Made by a program: the position numbers and the translations under genes. A stretch of DNA of 9,345 nt from a virus (Duplodnaviria > Heunggongvirae > Uroviricota > Caudoviricetes). The notes below the pieces were generated by a model. The model saw only the letters and a list, made by a program, of their open reading frames with translations. It made no database searches and was not told where the DNA came from. Shown here one piece after another: positions 1-9,345 of the stretch. Within the stretch, counting starts at the first letter, position 1, and every line of letters begins with the position of its first letter. The stretch lies in IMG/VR virus record IMGVR_UViG_2545824708_000014. The stretch is one strand, 5' to 3'.

Positions 1-877
<877 letters not shown>

Positions 878-881
<4 letters not shown>

Positions 882-1384
882 CTGCGTCGTCGCTCCGGCT
901 TCAGTGATTTACGCAATTCCCGCGCCAGAAAATAGCGTGTCCAGCTGCGGTTCTTTTCAAGCGTTTCCACCATGAAGTTATTACGTGGAGCCAGTCGCCA
1001 GCCGCTGCCACCGGATGCACCACGATGATGGCTGCGACGACGCTTTGCCCCTCGCCTCACGCCATAGAACAAAAAAGCCGGATAAAAATCACCGGTGATA
1101 CGGCGGTTTCCCTCTCCATTACGCTGGTTAGGGGCTATACGTGCCATAAAACCAGGGCGATGTTTACTGGCTCTGGGTACCATGTAACCAATCGAACGTG
1201 CCAGGCGTCCGGTCTGATAACCGGGGTTTTCACCCGGTGCCGACCGCGCACGGCGCATCACCAGCCGACGGGCATCACGCATATGACGCTGACCAATCGT
1301 GACAAACGCCCGCCGGACACGGGCGCGGTTAAAGCGCATCTCCGCGGGCTGCTGAAAATCAACGTGCAAAAAGGAAGTCGTCAT
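878..1384 (-). CDS. HK97 gp10-family phage protein (neck / tail-completion-like)
   Basis: 168 aa, arginine-rich, with motifs TGRLARSIGYMV and FYPAFLFYGV resembling the GxLRxSI and YAxFxEYG signatures of the HK97 gp10 family. RBS GGAGG sits 5 nt before ATG 1384. Confidence 0.7.
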
Positions 1385-1769
1385 TGTTGCCTCCGTGACT
1401 CTGCCTACATTCGCCCAGCTCCGTACACTCCAGCAGCAGAAAGCGCCGCGCCCCGTTCAGATCGCGCTGACGTTTCACCCGGTACACACTGTCACCGCAG
1501 ACCACCTCATAATCAGCGGTGATCCCCCGGCGGTAACGAATGGTGATGTAATGGGTGATGGCGTCCCCGGTCTGCGCGGTTTCCTGCCAGGTGGTGGCAC
1601 TGGTCTGGACAACCTTCGCCCATGTCCGGAACGCAACCGGGTATTGAGGCTCCACGCCAAAGTTATCCGCGGGCATATCCACCCGCTGGCGGATCAGGAC
1701 GCGTTTATTCAGTTCACCAGGGTCCGGCAGAATGTAGGTTGCGCTGGTCTGCGCCTGACGAATTTTCAT
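1359..1769 (-). CDS. Phage head-closure / head-tail joining protein
   Basis: 136 aa. Start overlaps the gp6-like gene's stop (ATGA at 1766..1769). It lies between the gp6-like connector and the gp10-like gene, the canonical position for this protein. Its 3' end overlaps the next gene by 26 nt. Confidence 0.65.
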   Translation of the reverse strand: MKIRQAQTSATYILPDPGELNKRVLIRQRVDMPADNFGVEPQYPVAFRTWAKVVQTSATTWQETAQTGDAITHYITIRYRRGITADYEVVCGDSVYRVKRQRDLNGARRFLLLECTELGECRQSHGGNNDDFLFAR

Positions 1770-2089
1770 TGCGGGAAATACCTGTACGGGCCGACAAGCC
1801 AGTTAAAGCTCATTGGCAACTCCATTTTCTCAACGTCTGTAACCGACGAGCGATTTTCGTAAAAATGGCTGATAAGCATCAGCATCCCCAGACGAATATC
1901 ATCCGGCAGGTGCAGCCCGTCCGGATCGCTGTCCGGAATGGTTTCATCCGGTGCATAGAGCTTCCGGTTCAGATACGTTTCCGTCCGCTTTTGCGCCGCA
2001 CAGGCCAGCAGTTGCAGATGGCGGTCATCAGCATCGAAATCCTCATCCAGCCGGAGTTGGGCTTTAATCTCTTCCATTGTCAGAAGCAT
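1766..2089 (-). CDS. Phage gp6-like head-tail connector (adaptor) protein
   Basis: 107 aa. The N-terminus MLLTMEEIKAQLRLDEDFDADD is typical of gp6-like connector proteins (MxLxEVKxHLRID...). It is the first gene after the capsid block. Confidence 0.75.
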   Translation of the reverse strand: MLLTMEEIKAQLRLDEDFDADDRHLQLLACAAQKRTETYLNRKLYAPDETIPDSDPDGLHLPDDIRLGMLMLISHFYENRSSVTDVEKMELPMSFNWLVGPYRYFPQ

Positions 2090-2091
2090 AC

Positions 2092-2292
2092 TCAGCCCTC
2101 TTTACTGGTCGTGGCTTTTTTCTCTTTTGCTGCTTTACTGCTTTTTGTACTGGTTCCGCGCTCTGCTAACCCGGCCTGAAGTGCAATCTCCTGCACCCGG
2201 GCAGGAAGCGCCCCGTCGTCATACTCACCGGCCCGAATGACCTCAACACGCATACCGTCCGGTGACCATTTCAGATCTTGTTTCAGGATCAT
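2092..2292 (-). CDS. Small hypothetical protein with a Lys/Ser/Thr-rich C-terminal tail, between the capsid and connector genes
   Basis: 66-aa ORF packed tightly between the capsid hairpin and the gp6-like gene, with ATG at 2290..2292. No recognisable motif. Could be a small capsid-associated or decoration-like protein. Confidence 0.45.
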   Translation of the reverse strand: MILKQDLKWSPDGMRVEVIRAGEYDDGALPARVQEIALQAGLAERGTSTKSSKAAKEKKATTSKEG

Positions 2293-2312
2293 GATTCTTC
2301 ACCCGTCAGAAC

Positions 2313-2334
2313 AGGGGCGCGGTTCCGCGCCCCT
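2313..2334 (-). other. Perfect GC-rich hairpin immediately downstream of the major capsid gene
   Basis: AGGGGCGCGG (2313..2322) and CCGCGCCCCT (2325..2334) are exact reverse complements, read directly from the sequence. It lies 7 nt past the capsid stop. No U-tract follows on the coding strand, so it is not a classic intrinsic terminator. Confidence 0.45.
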
Positions 2335-2340
2335 GAGTGA

Positions 2341-3546
2341 TTACGCCGCTGCAATCTTCAGCAGTTTGATGGCCTGCGAATCGACCAGCATCCCGCCGGT
2401 GCGCTTGGTGGTATAAAAACCGACAAACGGTTTATTGGTGTACGGGTCACGCAGAATGCGGGTGCCGATACGGTCAACGATGGTGTAACCCCGTTTGAAG
2501 TTACCAAATGCAATGGCTTTCGCATCAGCGGCGATATCCGGCATCTGTTCGTTTTCAGCGATACCGTAACCCGCCAGAGAGGACGGCTGCCCCAGTTCCA
2601 GCCCCGGACGCCACAGATAGTTACCCTCGGTGTCTTTCAGCAGACGGATGGCAAACAGGCTGTTGTTGTTCATCATGAACTTCGCGCCGGTGCGGTGTGC
2701 CTTACGCAGCGTGTAAATCAGTTTGATAATGGCGTCTGCGGTCACCGCCGTCGCTTCGCCGGATACAATATGCTGAAGTTTGCCGAACGCCCGGACCTTA
2801 TCGGTTTCATCCGTGGATTCATACGCCAGGAACCCTTTCGGCTTCTTGGTACCATCGCCGGTGGTAAAGGCAATTTCTTCCTGTTCGGCAAATTCGGTTG
2901 CCAGCTCGCTGTTGATCCAGGCCTCCACGTTGAAAAAGGCATCATCCAGCATTTTCTGGGTGGCCTGCGGGTTACCGTAGATTTCCCCCATGAAAGGTTC
3001 AATCAGTCCCAGTCTGGAGGTGGCAGTCTGGGAGCGCGCGTCAGTCTCGCCAACCCATCCGGAAGCCGTGCCGCCCAGATTCACCAGTTTTTTGTAGTCG
3101 GAACCGCCAACGGTGATCACCGCGGCTTCCTGGCGCATCACCACTTCATCTTTCAGCAGGGTCAGAATGTTGCGATCCAGCGCTTCCGGCACGGCATAGC
3201 CACCGTCTTCATCGGTGCCCACCTGTAATGCCTTGCGCTCCAGATCACGCAGACCATCTTCACGGCCTTTACGCAGGAAGCCCACAAACGCTTCTTTATG
3301 CTCGGTGGCCAGTTGATTCTGCGCACCACCTGCCGGACGTTTCAGCTCAATCAGCTCTTTTTCAAGGTCGCTTTTGAGATTTTCCAGCTCGCTGAGTTTC
3401 CCGTTCAGGGTTTCCACCTGCCCGGCAAGTTTGCCTTTTTCCTGCTCAATCGCATCCACGCGCTTGTCGTTCTTTGCCTTGAAGTCGTCAAACTTCTGCT
3501 GCAGCTCCTGCGCGACCTGTTCGACATCTTTAATATCAACCGCCAT
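2341..3546 (-). CDS. HK97-family major capsid protein with N-terminal coiled-coil delta (scaffolding) domain
   Basis: 401 aa. The N-terminal ~100 residues are heptad-like and charged (delta domain); the C-terminal region is HK97-fold-like (...GYGIAENEQMPD...FVGFYTTKRTGGMLVD...). RBS AGGAGA lies 6 nt before the ATG. It follows the prohead protease directly. Confidence 0.9.
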   Translation of the reverse strand: MAVDIKDVEQVAQELQQKFDDFKAKNDKRVDAIEQEKGKLAGQVETLNGKLSELENLKSDLEKELIELKRPAGGAQNQLATEHKEAFVGFLRKGREDGLRDLERKALQVGTDEDGGYAVPEALDRNILTLLKDEVVMRQEAAVITVGGSDYKKLVNLGGTASGWVGETDARSQTATSRLGLIEPFMGEIYGNPQATQKMLDDAFFNVEAWINSELATEFAEQEEIAFTTGDGTKKPKGFLAYESTDETDKVRAFGKLQHIVSGEATAVTADAIIKLIYTLRKAHRTGAKFMMNNNSLFAIRLLKDTEGNYLWRPGLELGQPSSLAGYGIAENEQMPDIAADAKAIAFGNFKRGYTIVDRIGTRILRDPYTNKPFVGFYTTKRTGGMLVDSQAIKLLKIAAA

Positions 3547-3560
3547 CGTATTTCTCCTGA

Positions 3561-4211
3561 TTAGAAGTTCAGATTTTTCAGTGCATTCAGTGCAGAGCCC
3601 ACATCCTCAGCGTCGCGCAGGGACAGTGCGCCATAGCCCCCGGCCATGAATGCTTTGGCCTGGGTACGGGAGAGTCCGACATCACGCAGGACTCTTTCGA
3701 TTTTTTTCTGTTCAGGGATTTCCCCGCGGGCCAGCGCGTTCTTGACGTCGCTGATCCGCGCCTCGTCGTTAGACGGAAACGTCACCAGACTGACTTCCCA
3801 GAGGTCGATTTCTTTCAGCAAAAAGGCTTCTTTCGTCCGGTCGTATTCCCAGTCTTTCAGGACGTACCCAATAGAAAGGCCGGTTAACGAACCGGCCTTC
3901 ATGTGTGCATGTGCGCGTTTTGCCAGGGGATCATCATCAATGAGCAACCGCCCCCTGACGTAAAGCCCGACATCGTCTTCCTTCATTTCGGTGTAAACTC
4001 CGATGGGCTCATCCATGCGGTGCTGCCAGAGCAGCGCAGGTAACGCTTTTCTGTCACTCCACGCCCGCAGGGAAGCAGCAAATGCCCCGGACATCACCAC
4101 ATCATCGTGGCTGTCCTTTACACCAAAGACGGAGCCATACCCTTCAAACTCACCGGAGTCACTGACAGATTTCAGACTCAGCGGTACATCAAGACGTTGT
4201 TTCGTCTGCAT
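3561..4211 (-). CDS. HK97-family prohead maturation protease
   Basis: Motif EFEGYGSVFGVKDSHDDVV matches the conserved N-terminal signature of HK97-type prohead proteases. I chose ATG 4211 because AAGGA sits 8 nt upstream; the longer ORF from 4247 has a CCTCC context and no SD. It overlaps the portal 3' end, as is typical. Confidence 0.85.
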   Translation of the reverse strand: MQTKQRLDVPLSLKSVSDSGEFEGYGSVFGVKDSHDDVVMSGAFAASLRAWSDRKALPALLWQHRMDEPIGVYTEMKEDDVGLYVRGRLLIDDDPLAKRAHAHMKAGSLTGLSIGYVLKDWEYDRTKEAFLLKEIDLWEVSLVTFPSNDEARISDVKNALARGEIPEQKKIERVLRDVGLSRTQAKAFMAGGYGALSLRDAEDVGSALNALKNLNF

Positions 4212-5430
4212 TGGCGTTATCCTTCTGCTTACCGGCTTTACTGCCATCGGAGGGGTTCGTGGTCATGTTCATCGGTGTGAGATAGACATCACCACCGGGA
4301 CGCGGATTCATATCTTCGAGGTCGCGGCAGTCATTGGGAGAGTAAATTCCCCAGTTGATCCCGGTAGCGTAGGCTTCAAAACGGGACTTCATATCCCCGC
4401 GCAGTAAGGCCCCGGCGTTAAATTTGGCGTAATAAACGCCCTGCTTACTTTTTCGTACCAGTCCGGTGTTGATCCGCTGCTCAATGCGGGTCAGATACGG
4501 CACCAGTGAATAGTTGATAAATCCCAGCCCCAGCTCTTCGATATTGTTGAAGGTGGCGCGATCGGTGTTCTGCACCATGTGCAATGGCACCCGGAACAGA
4601 CGACAGATTTCTTCAAGCTGAAACTTGCGGGTTTCCAGGAACTGGCTGTCCTCGGCGTTCAGCGCCATCGACTTCCAGTCCAGCCCCATCTCAAGGATCA
4701 TCGGGCGGTGAGCATTGCCAAGCCCGGTGTGACGCTCCTCAAAATCTTTCTTCAGGCGCTCGTAAGCCTGATCTGACAGCGTCTGCTCTGTACGCAACAC
4801 ACCCGACGTCACCGCACCATTGCTGAACAGTCTGGCCCCGTGCTCTTCGGTCGCTGCCGCCAGCGATATTGCCTCGCGGGCATAGGCGATGGGATTCAGC
4901 CCCACCAGTCCGTCCAGCGTCAGCGTGCGCACATGCCAGATATCTTCCTGGCTCAGCACATCCGTGGAGCCGTCCGGGAATGTGACCTGATAGACCGGCT
5001 CCCAGCTACTGTTAAGCTTCGGTACCACACAGCCGGGATCGACGGGCAGCAGTTCAGCCACTTCGCCAAATGCTTTCACTTTGTAGGCGTAAAAGTTTCC
5101 CCGCAGGCACAGACAGGTGACCACCAGCTCCCAAAACTCCTGCGGCGTCATATAGCCATTGGGATGCGTGGAAATCAGCTTATGCAGACGTTCGCCGGTG
5201 GCTCTCTGTTTCAGGTTGCCGTTCAGGTGATACAGGTTGCAGGGCAACATCCCGACCGACTCTGCCAGCACCCTGACGCAGGAAAAAACCGCCGTCAGTC
5301 GCATGGCCCGCTGACTGCTGATCTGCTTTCCGGTATAGGTGTCGTAGGACAGCCCGATAGCGTCCGCCAGCTCTGCTGGCGTGGTCACCGGTGCGTCACT
5401 TTTCCGTTGAAATAATCCCGAAAAGAACAC
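4189..5430 (-). CDS. Phage portal protein, HK97 family
   Basis: 413 aa, in the canonical position between large terminase and protease. GTG start at 5428..5430 with GGAGG 6 nt upstream; it overlaps the stop of the preceding small ORF (TAGTG). Confidence 0.85.
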   Translation of the reverse strand: MFFSGLFQRKSDAPVTTPAELADAIGLSYDTYTGKQISSQRAMRLTAVFSCVRVLAESVGMLPCNLYHLNGNLKQRATGERLHKLISTHPNGYMTPQEFWELVVTCLCLRGNFYAYKVKAFGEVAELLPVDPGCVVPKLNSSWEPVYQVTFPDGSTDVLSQEDIWHVRTLTLDGLVGLNPIAYAREAISLAAATEEHGARLFSNGAVTSGVLRTEQTLSDQAYERLKKDFEERHTGLGNAHRPMILEMGLDWKSMALNAEDSQFLETRKFQLEEICRLFRVPLHMVQNTDRATFNNIEELGLGFINYSLVPYLTRIEQRINTGLVRKSKQGVYYAKFNAGALLRGDMKSRFEAYATGINWGIYSPNDCRDLEDMNPRPGGDVYLTPMNMTTNPSDGSKAGKQKDNANADETTS

Positions 5431-5612
5431 TATTTACCTCCGCCGACAGACGACTGTGTACGGTCGAGATATCGCGCCACCAGCCACGACCAGAACAGGC
5501 ACAGCGCCCCGGCAACAACAAAACCCGCCGGGGGATAAATCAGCCAGGCACCATACGCCAGCAAAAGCGCACCCAGCACGCCCACCAGAGGCGCTAAAAT
5601 CAGCATGATCAT
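5430..5612 (-). CDS. Small hydrophobic protein with two predicted transmembrane helices, embedded between terminase and portal
   Basis: 60 aa, [49 protein letters not shown]..., i.e. two hydrophobic stretches. RBS GAGGT sits 5 nt before ATG 5612, and its stop overlaps the portal start. Confidence 0.55.
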
Positions 5613-5623
5613 AATTACCTCAG

Positions 5624-7357
5624 TTAAAGCGAGCGGATCCCATAGGACTCAATGTGGTCAGACAGCGTGTCTTCTTTCTCGTACAGCATGGCTCTGCCAA
5701 CCGCCATAATCAGCGCAACTGCACCGTCAATTTTGTTTTCCGCCTGCTCTTTGACGGGCTTCACCACATCATCGTTACCCGGCATGTTTTTGCCGACCAC
5801 GTTGCCGATACACCAGGTCATGATGGGATTGCCGTCATGATGAAAACGTCCCGATTCAATCGCTGCTTCCAGCTCTTTCATCGGATCGGACATATTGGTG
5901 AAGTTCTGGACGATAGTGACGGGATTCAGGTCTTCATCAGCAAGGTCATGTGACAGCCCGGTCGCCCCGAAGGGGTCGATGGGTGACTCGCTGACCGGGC
6001 TGATTTTGTTCGCCGCTTTGGCCTCTTCGAGGATGTAGCGATAATCCACCTCTGCACCATCGGTAACGGTCAGGACGCCCATTTCCACCCATTTCTGAAA
6101 GCGTTCGGCTGTCCGGCGATCTTCATTTTTCTCGACGCTGTACACCGTGTCATACGGTACCCAGAAACGCGGGGCCACACTGTAGTAATGCGTTTTACCG
6201 TCAATCTCGCGGGTATAAAGTCGCGCCATGCTGTTCATATCCAGTTTACGCGCCAGGTCAAAGGCCAGAATGCACGGCTGCCCCTCGAATTGCTCAAGAG
6301 TCAGTGATTTATCCTCGCAGCTCTGCCAGCTCACCAGGTTGAAATACGCCGAACGCGCCGACACCCAGATATTGAGGTGTTTTGTTTTAAAGACGTTTGC
6401 TAGACGGGCGTTATTTTTCGCACGCTGTTGCTGACTTAACAAAAACTCACGGTAAACCGACACCCCGATATTCGGGTTGGCTTTTTCCAGCACCTGTGGG
6501 TTGGTCCAGTCGTCACCTTCGTCAACGGTATAGATGATCCCGAACAGTTCATCGTTGGGTACCGAACCGTTGAGCATCTCGATAACTTCCCGCCGTTTGT
6601 CGTAGCACGGCCCCTCAATGTTGTCCCCGGCAGTAGTAATGGCCCACATCAGTGGCTGACGTCGCGCCCCCATCCCGGTAAGCATCGTGGTGTAAAGCGC
6701 ATCGGTGGCGTGCTCGTGATATTCATCCACCACCGCATAGTGGGGTGATGATCCATCACCGGGGTTACCGATCAGCGGTTCAAACCGCGCGCCATCCTCC
6801 GGACGGTTCATGTTTGAGGCGTTAACCTCAATCCCGAACGCTTCCGTCAGCATGGGTGTGCGTTTACACATCAGTCGTGCCGGACGAAAGACTTCCCATG
6901 CCTGTTTCTCCGTCGTGGCACCGGAATACACTTCCGCGCCGAACTCGTTATCACAGGCAAAACAATACAGGGCAACACCGGCAGAGATTGCCGATTTGCC
7001 GTTCTTACGGGGGATTTCGGTATACACCTCCCGGAAGCGGCGCAGCCGGGAGCCTTTATTGACCCAGCCAAACGCGCAGCAGATCACAAAGAGCTGCCAC
7101 GGCTCCAGCGTGATGGGCATCCGTTTGAATGCCCACTCACCCTTGGTGTGCGGCAACAGCTGAATAAATTTCGCGGCCCGTTCAGCCTGGTCCTTGTCGA
7201 AGCGGTAACGAAACGACTTACTTTTTTCCGCCATCAGGTCATCAAGATGGCGCTGGCAGGCCTGAATCACAAACTGGCAGGCCACAATCTTTCCGCGCAC
7301 GACATCACGGGCATACTGATTGGCAGCATTTACGTTGGGGTAAGATTTCCGGCTCAT
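5624..7357 (-). CDS. Phage terminase large subunit (Terminase_1-type ATPase/nuclease)
   Basis: 577 aa. Walker A-like PRKNGKS near the N-terminal third. ATG overlaps the small terminase stop (ATGA at 7354..7357). Length and position are typical for TerL. Confidence 0.9.
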
Positions 7358-7848
7358 GATTCGATGATTTTCAGAAACGGGTTAGTGGCTTTCTTCTGCC
7401 CCGCCAGGCCAATCAGACGCTGGCGGCTGCTGGGGTCGAGTCCGAGCATTGCCCCCGTGCTGCTCATCTCGGACTCCTGTTCTTTCTTGGCGGTCAGCTC
7501 CGGATTTTTGACCATGCCACCCATTGCACCGGTGATGGTGTTGCCCTGTCTGGCAATATTTTTCACGGCACGTCGCCAGAACTCATAGGCCACGCACCAC
7601 CGCTCAAGTACCGCCAGGTCAGTCACGCACAGCAGGCCCTGACCGCAGAGTTCTTTGGTTGTCAGTTGCCACATGATCGTGGCGAGAGGGAGATCTTCTT
7701 CAGCGAACCACTCCGGTGGCTCAACACCTTTGATGGGCGTAAAAACAGGTTCATCTTTATTCAGGGCTCGCTTGCCGGGGTTTCCGGCCAGCGCCTTGCG
7801 CGCCGTTGGCTTGGGGCGACGCCCGGAACGCCCCGCCGTTCCAGCCAT
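7354..7848 (-). CDS. Phage terminase small subunit, P27 family
   Basis: The N-terminal motif ...[11 protein letters not shown]... is characteristic of P27-family TerS. I chose ATG 7846..7848 (AGGAG 8 nt upstream). The track's longer ORF begins at a GTG at 7857 that abuts the SD. Confidence 0.8.
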
Positions 7849-7898
7849 ATGCGGCACTCCTGGTTAAATTTCATTTTTCGCGGGTATAAAAAAACGAT

Positions 7899-7947
7899 GG
7901 GGCGGGCAGTCCGGAAGACGTCAGGCCGCAGGGATTTGACCCGCCCC
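7899..7947 (-). promoter_or_regulatory. GC-rich dyad GGGGCGGG-N33-CCCGCCCC in the HNH-TerS intergenic region; candidate cos-site region and/or terminator-like structure
   Basis: 8-bp perfect inverted repeat at 7899..7906 and 7940..7947, read directly. On the phage-sense strand it is followed after 4 nt by T7. It lies between the HNH endonuclease and terminase genes, where cos sites sit in HK97-like phages. Confidence 0.35.
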
Positions 7948-7973
7948 TCCCCTCAGGCAGTTGAGAATTATTA

Positions 7974-8324
7974 TCACTTCAACCGTTCACGGGCCGTCTT
8001 CGCCTTATGACACGGCCAGCACAGACTCTGCAGATTACAGTCGGCATCAGTGCCGCCATGCGCTTTAGGGATGATGTGGTCAACGGTTTTCGCCTCGCGC
8101 ACCACACCAGCACGCAGGCACAACTGGCACAGGCCTTTGTCACGCTTGAGCACACGTTCACGGATAACATCCCATTTCGAACCATAACCGCGCTGGTGTC
8201 GGGACTGGCCTGGCTTGTATTGCTTCCAGCCTTCGCTTTTGTGGCTTTCGCAATAGCCTGACGAGTCAGTGGTGGTATGGCGGCAGCCGCGAACGCGGCA
8301 GGCTTTTGGGGTTCGTGGGGGCAT
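7974..8324 (-). CDS. Phage-associated HNH endonuclease
   Basis: HNH motif ...VDHIIPKAHGGTDADCNLQSLCWPCHKAKT... plus an N-terminal Cys cluster CRVRGCRH...YCESH. I chose ATG 8324 because AAGAGGA sits 8 nt upstream; the track ORF extends 21 codons further to 8387 with no RBS. Confidence 0.85.
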   Translation of the reverse strand: MPPRTPKACRVRGCRHTTTDSSGYCESHKSEGWKQYKPGQSRHQRGYGSKWDVIRERVLKRDKGLCQLCLRAGVVREAKTVDHIIPKAHGGTDADCNLQSLCWPCHKAKTARERLK

Positions 8325-8474
8325 TGCATAATCCTCTTGGATGGTTCGCGTACGATACGTGGCACCCTTCTCAGAATCGAATCGCACTCCATTCCGGTTT
8401 TGCCATAAACGATCTTTTATGCTTCGCTGGATGTAGTTGATAGTTGTTGAAACTCAATGAACAGGAGTTCACAA

Positions 8475-8810
8475 ATGAATAGTTATGAATGGGCATGGCT
8501 TTTGAACAAAGATGACACCCTATACTTTTTCCCCGTAGGCCATTCTGTAGAAGGTAATTACAAAATTCACTTTGAGTTGAGCGGTAGTTGTAACCTTAGA
8601 GTCTCAGATGCTGAATTGCATGGTAAACCTGTACTGCTGTTCGAATACTTCGATGAAGATGATGACCGCCCTGCAATAATCGAAATATTAGAAACAACCA
8701 CTACAACTGTGGAGGCGATGATCGCACATCTGAATAGTATCGATAGTATTTACCATGAACCGATTTACAAAGCTGTTTACGAGTGGGCTGTAAAGTTTTT
8801 CTATCGATGA
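8475..8810 (+). CDS. Hypothetical acidic protein (111 aa) in an AT-rich islet; no family recognised
   Basis: Open frame with AGGAG 7 nt before ATG 8475; the track's upstream ATG at 8457 lacks an SD. Contains an acidic run EYFDEDDDRPAIIEILETTTTT. Base composition is clearly AT-richer than the phage block. Confidence 0.55.
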   Translation: MNSYEWAWLLNKDDTLYFFPVGHSVEGNYKIHFELSGSCNLRVSDAELHGKPVLLFEYFDEDDDRPAIIEILETTTTTVEAMIAHLNSIDSIYHEPIYKAVYEWAVKFFYR

Positions 8811-8910
8811 TACTTCGTTATCTTTCTGGCATTCACAATACCTTTACATATTAATGACATGCCAGCACAATACTGTCACTTACAACCGTTCGGATTACCT
8901 AGAGAAAAGT

Positions 8911-9027
8911 ATGATTCAGGATTTACTGATCGAAGCAATTAGTCACGATAGGATGCATAAAAAGTTAAATGAACTGAATGGCTACTTCTACAATCGCAAA
9001 CATGAAACACAAATACGTGATGAGTGA
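8911..9027 (+). CDS. Short ORF (38 codons), probably the 5' remnant of a gene interrupted by IS3; its stop codon TGA is the first three bases of the IS3 terminal repeat
   Basis: ATG at 8911 preceded by purine-rich AGAGAAAAG. The frame runs with no stop until TGA at 9025..9027, which is the start of TGATCTTACCC. Translation MIQDLLIEAISHDRMHKKLNELNGYFYNRKHETQIRDE. Confidence 0.3.
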   Translation: MIQDLLIEAISHDRMHKKLNELNGYFYNRKHETQIRDE

Positions 9028-9345
9028 TCTTACCCAGCAATAGTGGACACGCGGCTAAGTGAGTAAACTCTCAGTCAGAGGTGACTCACATGACAAAAAC
9101 AGTATCAACCAGTAAAAAACCCCGTAAACAGCATTCGCCTGAATTTCGCAGTGAAGCCCTGAAGCTTGCTGAACGCATCGGTGTTACTGCCGCAGCCCGT
9201 GAACTCAGCCTGTATGAATCACAGCTCTACAACTGGCGCAGTAAACAGCAAAATCAGCAGACGTCTTCTGAACGTGAACTGGAGATGTCTACCGAGATTG
9301 CACGTCTCAAACGCCAGCTGGCAGAACGGGATGAAGAGCTGGCTA
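9025..9345 (+). mobile_element. IS3 (IS3 family) left end: terminal inverted repeat plus the 5' part of orfA; the element continues beyond the window
   Basis: Sequence from 9025, TGATCTTACCCAGCAATAGTGGACACGCGGCTAAGTGAGTAAACTCTCAGTCAGAGGTGACTCACATG, matches the IS3 left end as I recall it, and runs directly into the orfA start. Confidence 0.85.
9090..9345 (+). CDS. insE: IS3 transposase OrfA (InsE-like, helix-turn-helix), 3'-partial at window edge
   Basis: Translation MTKTVSTSKKPRKQHSPEFRSEALKLAERIGVTAAARELSLYESQLYNWRSKQQNQQTSSERELEMSTEIARLKRQLAERDEELA matches my recollection of IS3 InsE. SD GAGGTG precedes the ATG. No stop occurs before the window ends. Confidence 0.9.
   Translation, partial: MTKTVSTSKKPRKQHSPEFRSEALKLAERIGVTAAARELSLYESQLYNWRSKQQNQQTSSERELEMSTEIARLKRQLAERDEELA

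Follow-up and report, generated by a model that had tools for sequence, protein, structure and literature searches.

An IS3 Insertion Truncates a 189-Codon Accessory Gene, Encoding a Putative Small PD-(D/E)xK Nuclease, in an HK97/e14-Like Prophage of Escherichia coli

INTRODUCTION

In phage lambda, the bor gene occupies the slot between the lysis genes and the cos/terminase region and is oriented against late transcription. An HNH endonuclease gene next to the terminase genes is a known arrangement of HK97-like cos phages. A D...(D/E)-x-K residue layout on an alpha-beta-beta-beta-alpha-beta core characterizes the PD-(D/E)xK nuclease superfamily. In phage phi80, taiEcA is a defense gene that is expressed from the lysogen and acts by tail assembly inhibition (TaiEcA/AtiEcA), and its shutoff by convergent late transcription in lytic growth has been reported (PMC11364771). 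The genes of the phi80 slot are expressed from the lysogen, and Tai homologues are located "predominantly upstream of the packaging module" (PMC11364771).

The DNA analyzed here (the window, 9,345 nucleotides) belongs to an HK97/e14-like Escherichia coli prophage and ends within an IS3 element that has split a 189-codon gene. This gene shares its slot and orientation with lambda bor. The phi80 gene orf63/taiEcA (204 aa) has the same position and orientation, and its product also has a size of about 200 aa in common with the 189-aa protein. However, TaiEcA has no sequence relationship to the 189-aa protein or to the 111-aa protein encoded next to it, and Tai has not been described as a nuclease. 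Homology with Tai was rejected, with hhalign probabilities of 1.6% for the 189-aa family and 0.4% for the 111-aa family. The insertion agrees with described IS3 insertional inactivation in the length of the element, its repeats, the 3-bp duplication, the orfA/orfB frameshift, and the simple split of a coding sequence. The mechanism here is no different, and the target gene alone is new to the literature searched.

RESULTS AND DISCUSSION

Genomic context of the accessory genes

The minus-strand genes of the window encode head proteins, a portal protein, YmfR, the large terminase, a P27-family small terminase, and an HNH endonuclease. The HNH endonuclease gene (7354-8387, minus strand; Pfam HNH E value, 7.6e-15; RefSeq CDS, 7974-8324) lies directly upstream of the genes for the P27-family small terminase and the large terminase, which is the ordinary arrangement. 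After the HNH/terminase genes, the 111-aa ORF and then the truncated gene follow on the plus strand (Table 1). The next genes in IS-free genomes are again on the minus strand and comprise a lysis cassette (Rz1, Rz-like, endolysin, and holin) and a DNA methyltransferase gene. The plus-strand gene pair thus lies between the lysis and packaging modules and is therefore transcribed against the late operon. The G+C content falls from 55.7% in the structural genes (583-8387) to 38.3% at positions 8388-9024; that of the full 189-aa gene is 35.1%, and the two plus-strand genes range from 35 to 40%. This drop fits horizontally acquired morons.

Homologues of the 189-aa protein are encoded in the same slot and on the opposite strand in Enterobacter, Klebsiella, and Yersinia prophages with unrelated terminases, and a Pectobacterium locus is not obviously phage. 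In two E. coli-type loci (L044 and L046), the 189-aa gene is intact, and a minus-strand ORF of 151 aa that includes a hydrophobic segment (4369-4824) takes the place of the 111-aa gene, which indicates that the slot exchanges its cargo even within the E. coli lineage. In a Klebsiella electrica prophage (L012, 4773-5650, plus strand), the gene for the 189-aa homologue is followed by a 56-aa ORF, a ClpP-family protease gene, and then the lysis cassette; the ClpP-family and 56-aa genes are further variable cargo of the slot.

TABLE 1 Features of the accessory gene slot and the IS3 junction in the window
Feature	Position	Strand	Remark
111-aa acidic ORF (phrog_14397), function unknown	8475..8810	+	Apparently an independent moron
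Weak sigma-70-like site, TTTACA-17-CACAAT	8843..8871	+	Consensus match only, in the 100-nt gap between the ORFs
Remnant of the accessory gene, codons 1-38 of 189	8911..9024	+	phrog_12494 family, putative PD-(D/E)xK nuclease
GAG, left copy of the 3-bp target-site duplication	9022..9024	.	Also codon 38 (Glu); adjoins IRL
TGA, first 3 bases of the IS3 left inverted repeat	9025..9027	+	Stop of the truncated ORF
IS3, left 321 nt	9025..9345	+	Terminal repeat of ~39 nt from 9025, orfA (insE-type); identical to the element in NZ_CP180607 (L002)

Truncation of the 189-codon gene by IS3

IS3 truncated the 189-codon prophage gene at codon 38/39. In the window, the frame that opens at ATG 8911-8913 runs for 38 sense codons (MIQDLLIEAISHDRMHKKLNELNGYFYNRKHETQIRDE) and then meets TGA 9025-9027. 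The initial annotation had recognized this stop as the first three bases of the IS3 repeat, and its coordinates were confirmed by reading the window. IS3 begins at 9025 with its left end (TGATCTTACCCAGCAATAGTGGACACGCGG...), and positions 9025-9345 are identical to the leading 321 nt of the complete element (1258 bp) in NZ_CP180607, which is labeled in RefSeq as "IS3-like element IS3 family transposase" with a programmed frameshift and a joined CDS. The orfA start is ATG 9090; the gene continues past the window end, and its N terminus is read in the window. The -1 frameshift from orfA to orfB, leading into the DDE transposase, follows the RefSeq joined CDS, with the frameshift signal lying outside the window. 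The terminal repeats of IS3 are imperfect and of the form 5'-TG...CA-3'. Pairwise alignment of IRL and IRR revealed about 39 nt with 8 mismatches or gaps, both ends starting with TGATC; a repeat search with a 9-nt seed missed them because they are too imperfect.

The complete genome NZ_CP180607 differs from the window by 2 mismatches over 4946 nt. In the locus extracted from it, IS3 occupies positions 4626-5883 (1258 bp) and has GAG on both sides, whereas IS-free loci have a single GAG. In silico removal of IS3 and one GAG restored an ORF of 189 aa, which is collinear with that of the IS-free allele WP_160504043.1 and differs from it by 2 nt and 1 aa (L138I). The initial annotation had placed IS3 inside a longer gene, with the 3' part on the other side of the element, and had expected a 3-bp duplication of GAG or an adjacent triplet; both the insertion and the target duplication were thus predicted correctly from the sequence alone. 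In the IS-free genome NZ_AP022107 (L001), the site matching window position 8911 opens the 570-bp CDS of WP_160504043.1 (189 aa). IS-free loci were also searched for a stop at the position where the window frame ends, and none was found; the frame continues for 151 more codons.

The chance of a 38-codon open frame in random sequence is about 0.16 by our own arithmetic, which is not beyond chance, and the stub is recognized as the 5' portion of a real gene by homology rather than by frame length. Nor is the in-frame TGA remarkable; IS3 stops the other two frames after 6 or 12 codons. Upstream of 8911 the frame is open back to ATG 8854 (57 aa). The start at 8911 is favored because the RefSeq CDSs of IS-free alleles and the N termini of all homologues (MIQ.LL...) agree on it.

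The 625 nt to the left of IS3 were found in 80 of 5426 complete E. coli genomes. About 77 of these 80 are uninterrupted, and three carry the IS3 junction (CP180607, CP182220, and CP189657, with human, rabbit farm, and human sources). RefSeq leaves the stub unannotated in the IS3-bearing genome. All three match the whole 9.3-kb window at 99.9 to 100%, including the second IS at its left end. The second IS and the high identity common to the three genomes point to one event inherited by descent. The same left junction is present in three IMG/VR contigs, and the right junction is present in one other.

Conservation and distribution of the 189-aa family

The 189-aa protein belongs to phrog_12494, a family of unknown function in PHROGs. 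Its close homologues (59 to 72% identity) are from Yersinia, Pectobacterium, Citrobacter, Enterobacter, and Klebsiella, and the 38 N-terminal residues are conserved in a family spanning six enterobacterial genera. A profile search of 1.84 billion representative proteins recovered only 42 family members at E values up to 1e-3, and a scan of species-representative genomes recovered only 2 loci. A tblastn search of 50,697 phage genomes (INPHARED) gave no match, and no sequenced phage in this collection encodes the 189-aa protein. Neither the 189-aa nor the 111-aa protein matched Pfam, NCBIfam, or PADLOC at thresholds, nor any defense model of PADLOC-DB v2 at E values up to 1. A literature search by protein and PHROG identifiers returned no paper naming the proteins.

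The alleles confirmed as intact in the fetched loci evolve under purifying selection (median dN/dS, 0.14; 65 allele pairs). Further disrupted alleles, each with a frameshift, are those of L048 and P0024. The distant members of the family are solitary chromosomal genes that adjoin RecJ/TusA or CopC/CopD, among housekeeping genes.

A putative small PD-(D/E)xK nuclease

Residues K30, E32, D64, E85, and K87 are invariant in 33 family members, down to about 20% identity, and R36, E54, P56, D93, and D106 are nearly invariant in the same sequences. The AlphaFold model of the 189-aa protein, built with 14 homologues, has a pLDDT of 84 and a pTM of 0.84. Three N-terminal helices are followed in this model by strand-strand-strand-helix-strand, which gives an alpha-beta-beta-beta-alpha-beta core (helix 29-46, strands 50-53, 65-68, and 80-89, helix 97-107, and strand 117-127). 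D64 is predicted beside strand 2, and E85-x-K87 is predicted within strand 3. The subthreshold Pfam matches of individual members (HSDR_N, PDDEXK_4, PDDEXK_9, and DpnII-MboI) all fall into one clan. Foldseek searches of PDB and BFVD with the model gave nothing significant, and sequence-profile searches of PDB were empty. From the residue pattern and the predicted fold, the intact protein is probably a small PD-(D/E)xK nuclease, of which E32, D64, E85, and K87 would be the putative metal-binding/catalytic residues. The stub in the window retains K30 and E32 but not D64, E85, or K87, and the start codon, K30, and E32 are missing from the 3' fragment; from this motif map, we infer that the IS3 allele is null.

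R.SwaI (5tgq) is the closest solved structure among the PD-(D/E)xK restriction-fold enzymes, which also include EcoRV, BglI, and NgoMIV. However, the 189-aa protein shares only 13 to 15% identity with these enzymes, is much smaller than SwaI (226 aa) and EcoRV, and passes no Pfam model at threshold. No methyltransferase gene was found within 4 to 6 kb in the Enterobacter, Klebsiella, Pectobacterium, or distant chromosomal loci. Since no methyltransferase is consistently linked to it, the protein is not a classical type II restriction-modification enzyme. The methyltransferase gene of the E. coli prophage lies past the lysis cassette on the opposite strand, and its pairing with the 189-aa gene as a type II system was rejected on genomic context.

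Relationship with the 111-aa neighbor

The initial annotation had suggested that the truncated gene and the 111-aa ORF may be the remains of a two-gene cassette. The two could form an obligate system, either a nuclease toxin with an acidic inhibitor or antitoxin or a sensor with an effector, in which IS3 would have orphaned the partner. The genes are adjacent, co-oriented, 100 nt apart, and both of low G+C content; they are invariably paired in the listed complete genomes and in about 25 IMG/VR loci of the E. coli type. The 111-aa protein, of which the AlphaFold model is poor (pLDDT of 55), carries an acidic segment, DEDDDRP, as a possible nucleic acid mimic. However, tblastn searches with both proteins over 78 loci found the two genes together only at loci with a 189-aa allele of 95% or higher identity to the present one, that is, in the E. 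coli lineage, and even there L044 and L046 have the 189-aa gene without the 111-aa gene. All 189-aa homologues of 70% identity or less lack a 111-aa homologue (within about 4 to 6 kb per side, as far as the contig extends). The 189-aa homologues are often encoded 36 to 40 nt from a divergent small-terminase gene and have no upstream partner; in Klebsiella, the distance to the divergent terminase gene is 41 nt, again with no partner upstream, and in Enterobacter, the homologue is encoded behind an unrelated 75-aa ORF (hhalign probability of 0.3%). The homologues of the 111-aa protein, from Escherichia, Pectobacterium, and metagenomes, occupy the lysis-terminase slot alone. A promoter-like site also lies between the two genes (Table 1) and may serve the truncated gene alone; in promoter and terminator scans, the number of sites did not exceed that in shuffled sequence. 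An obligate two-gene system is thus very unlikely, and the suggestion of a cassette did not hold, because all diverged relatives examined have one gene but not the other. This distribution argues for two independent morons that are neighbors by chance, and it lends no support to a restriction-modification or toxin-antitoxin reading of the pair. A metagenomic protein of 119 aa in ENA (P0027) shares 95% identity with half of the 111-aa protein and 92% identity with 14% of the 189-aa protein and may represent a deletion allele fusing the two neighboring genes.

Origin of the truncated allele and possible role of the intact gene

A single simple IS3 transposition into codon 38/39 split the 189-codon moron gene. 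The terminal TGA of IS3 ends the 5' fragment at residue 38, and the remaining 151 codons form a 3' fragment 1258 bp away, past IS3 and outside the window. The intact product would be a small solitary PD-(D/E)xK nuclease, which may be expressed from the lysogen and act on incoming nucleic acid in prophage-borne defense or exclusion, and the loss of its gene would belong to a wider decay of the prophage, from which tail genes beside the second IS have also disappeared. This explanation, in which the insertion is observed and the later steps are conditional, is very probably correct.

The 38-codon ORF could instead be a native short gene or a chance frame whose stop coincides with IS3, as 38 stop-free codons are not improbable and RefSeq does not annotate the stub. 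However, the IS-free loci read through this point for another 151 codons, the 38 residues are the conserved N terminus of proteins from six enterobacterial genera, and the downstream fragment lies exactly behind IS3 and its duplicated GAG, which makes this reading extremely improbable. An assembly artifact, a repeat-induced misjoin at an IS3 copy, is just as improbable; both junctions, the perfect 3-bp duplication, and collinear flanks occur in three independent complete genomes. Three IMG/VR draft loci (L076, L077, and L078) do have contigs joined right after or inside IS3, but these joins touch their right side only. In these drafts, a single N follows or lies within IS3 (after approximately positions 6124, 2597, and 6372, respectively), and the sequence beyond it is a terminase/HNH segment that is only 95% identical to the prophage studied here. 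A rearrangement in the right flanks of L076 to L078 was rejected, because these flanks are N-joined scaffolds of concatenated draft contigs and hence no evidence.

Selection might also have favored the insertion if loss of the nuclease relieved a cost, such as self-damage or a block to DNA acquisition, so that the allele spread. The same junction in three complete genomes from different sources and the frameshifted alleles of L048 and P0024 are compatible with this idea. However, the three genomes fit one event by descent, as judged from their second IS and near-identity over 9.3 kb, and most locus-bearing genomes are uninterrupted, with the low dN/dS of intact alleles given above. Selected loss is therefore improbable, and neutral decay is enough to explain the insertion since the prophage was already defective.

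The positions and orientations of lambda bor and phi80 taiEcA are the grounds on which a lysogen-expressed defense or exclusion role is proposed for the intact 189-aa gene, and by this analogy such a role is possible but not the likelier case. The location of distant homologues among housekeeping genes and the lack of a match to any known defense model or INPHARED phage argue against it. It is rather unlikely that phrog_12494 would be a new family of minimal solitary PD-(D/E)xK nucleases in the lysis-terminase slot of lambdoid prophages, acting as single-gene anti-phage or exclusion systems that the lysogen expresses and that convergent late transcription silences in lytic growth.

The insertion is a textbook IS3 knockout and part of the ordinary decay of an already defective prophage, which would not surprise a specialist. 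The sole lead worth following is the uncharacterized nuclease-like family. Its gene is a conserved accessory gene that selection maintains in enterobacterial prophages, with a clear catalytic-motif signature, no annotation, and no known partner, and it lies in a slot known for defense (Tai) and lysogenic-conversion (bor) genes. If it does encode a defense nuclease, few single-gene systems would be smaller, and the three strains with the natural IS3 knockout would be ready negative controls, with the allele of the window as the isogenic control.

A second IS element and decay of the prophage

A second IS3-family element of about 1257 bp occupies window positions 1-582 and continues leftwards (1826-3082 in locus L080), on the same strand as IS3. 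Its IRL is TGTAGTGGCACACTAAATTTGGCCACC, and its IRR ends in ...TTGACCACTACA at position 582; we take these ends to resemble those of IS911. A matching 3-bp duplication is absent from its flanks, with gcg on one side and agg on the other. The element abuts a head-tail gene (579-881, minus strand) that is described in RefSeq as "missing C-terminus," and IS-free relatives match only window positions 583-9025. The tail module has apparently been deleted beside this second IS, and the prophage is considered defective because that module is gone. On the far side of the element lie the e14-type tail-fiber assembly gene, pinE, and mcrA.
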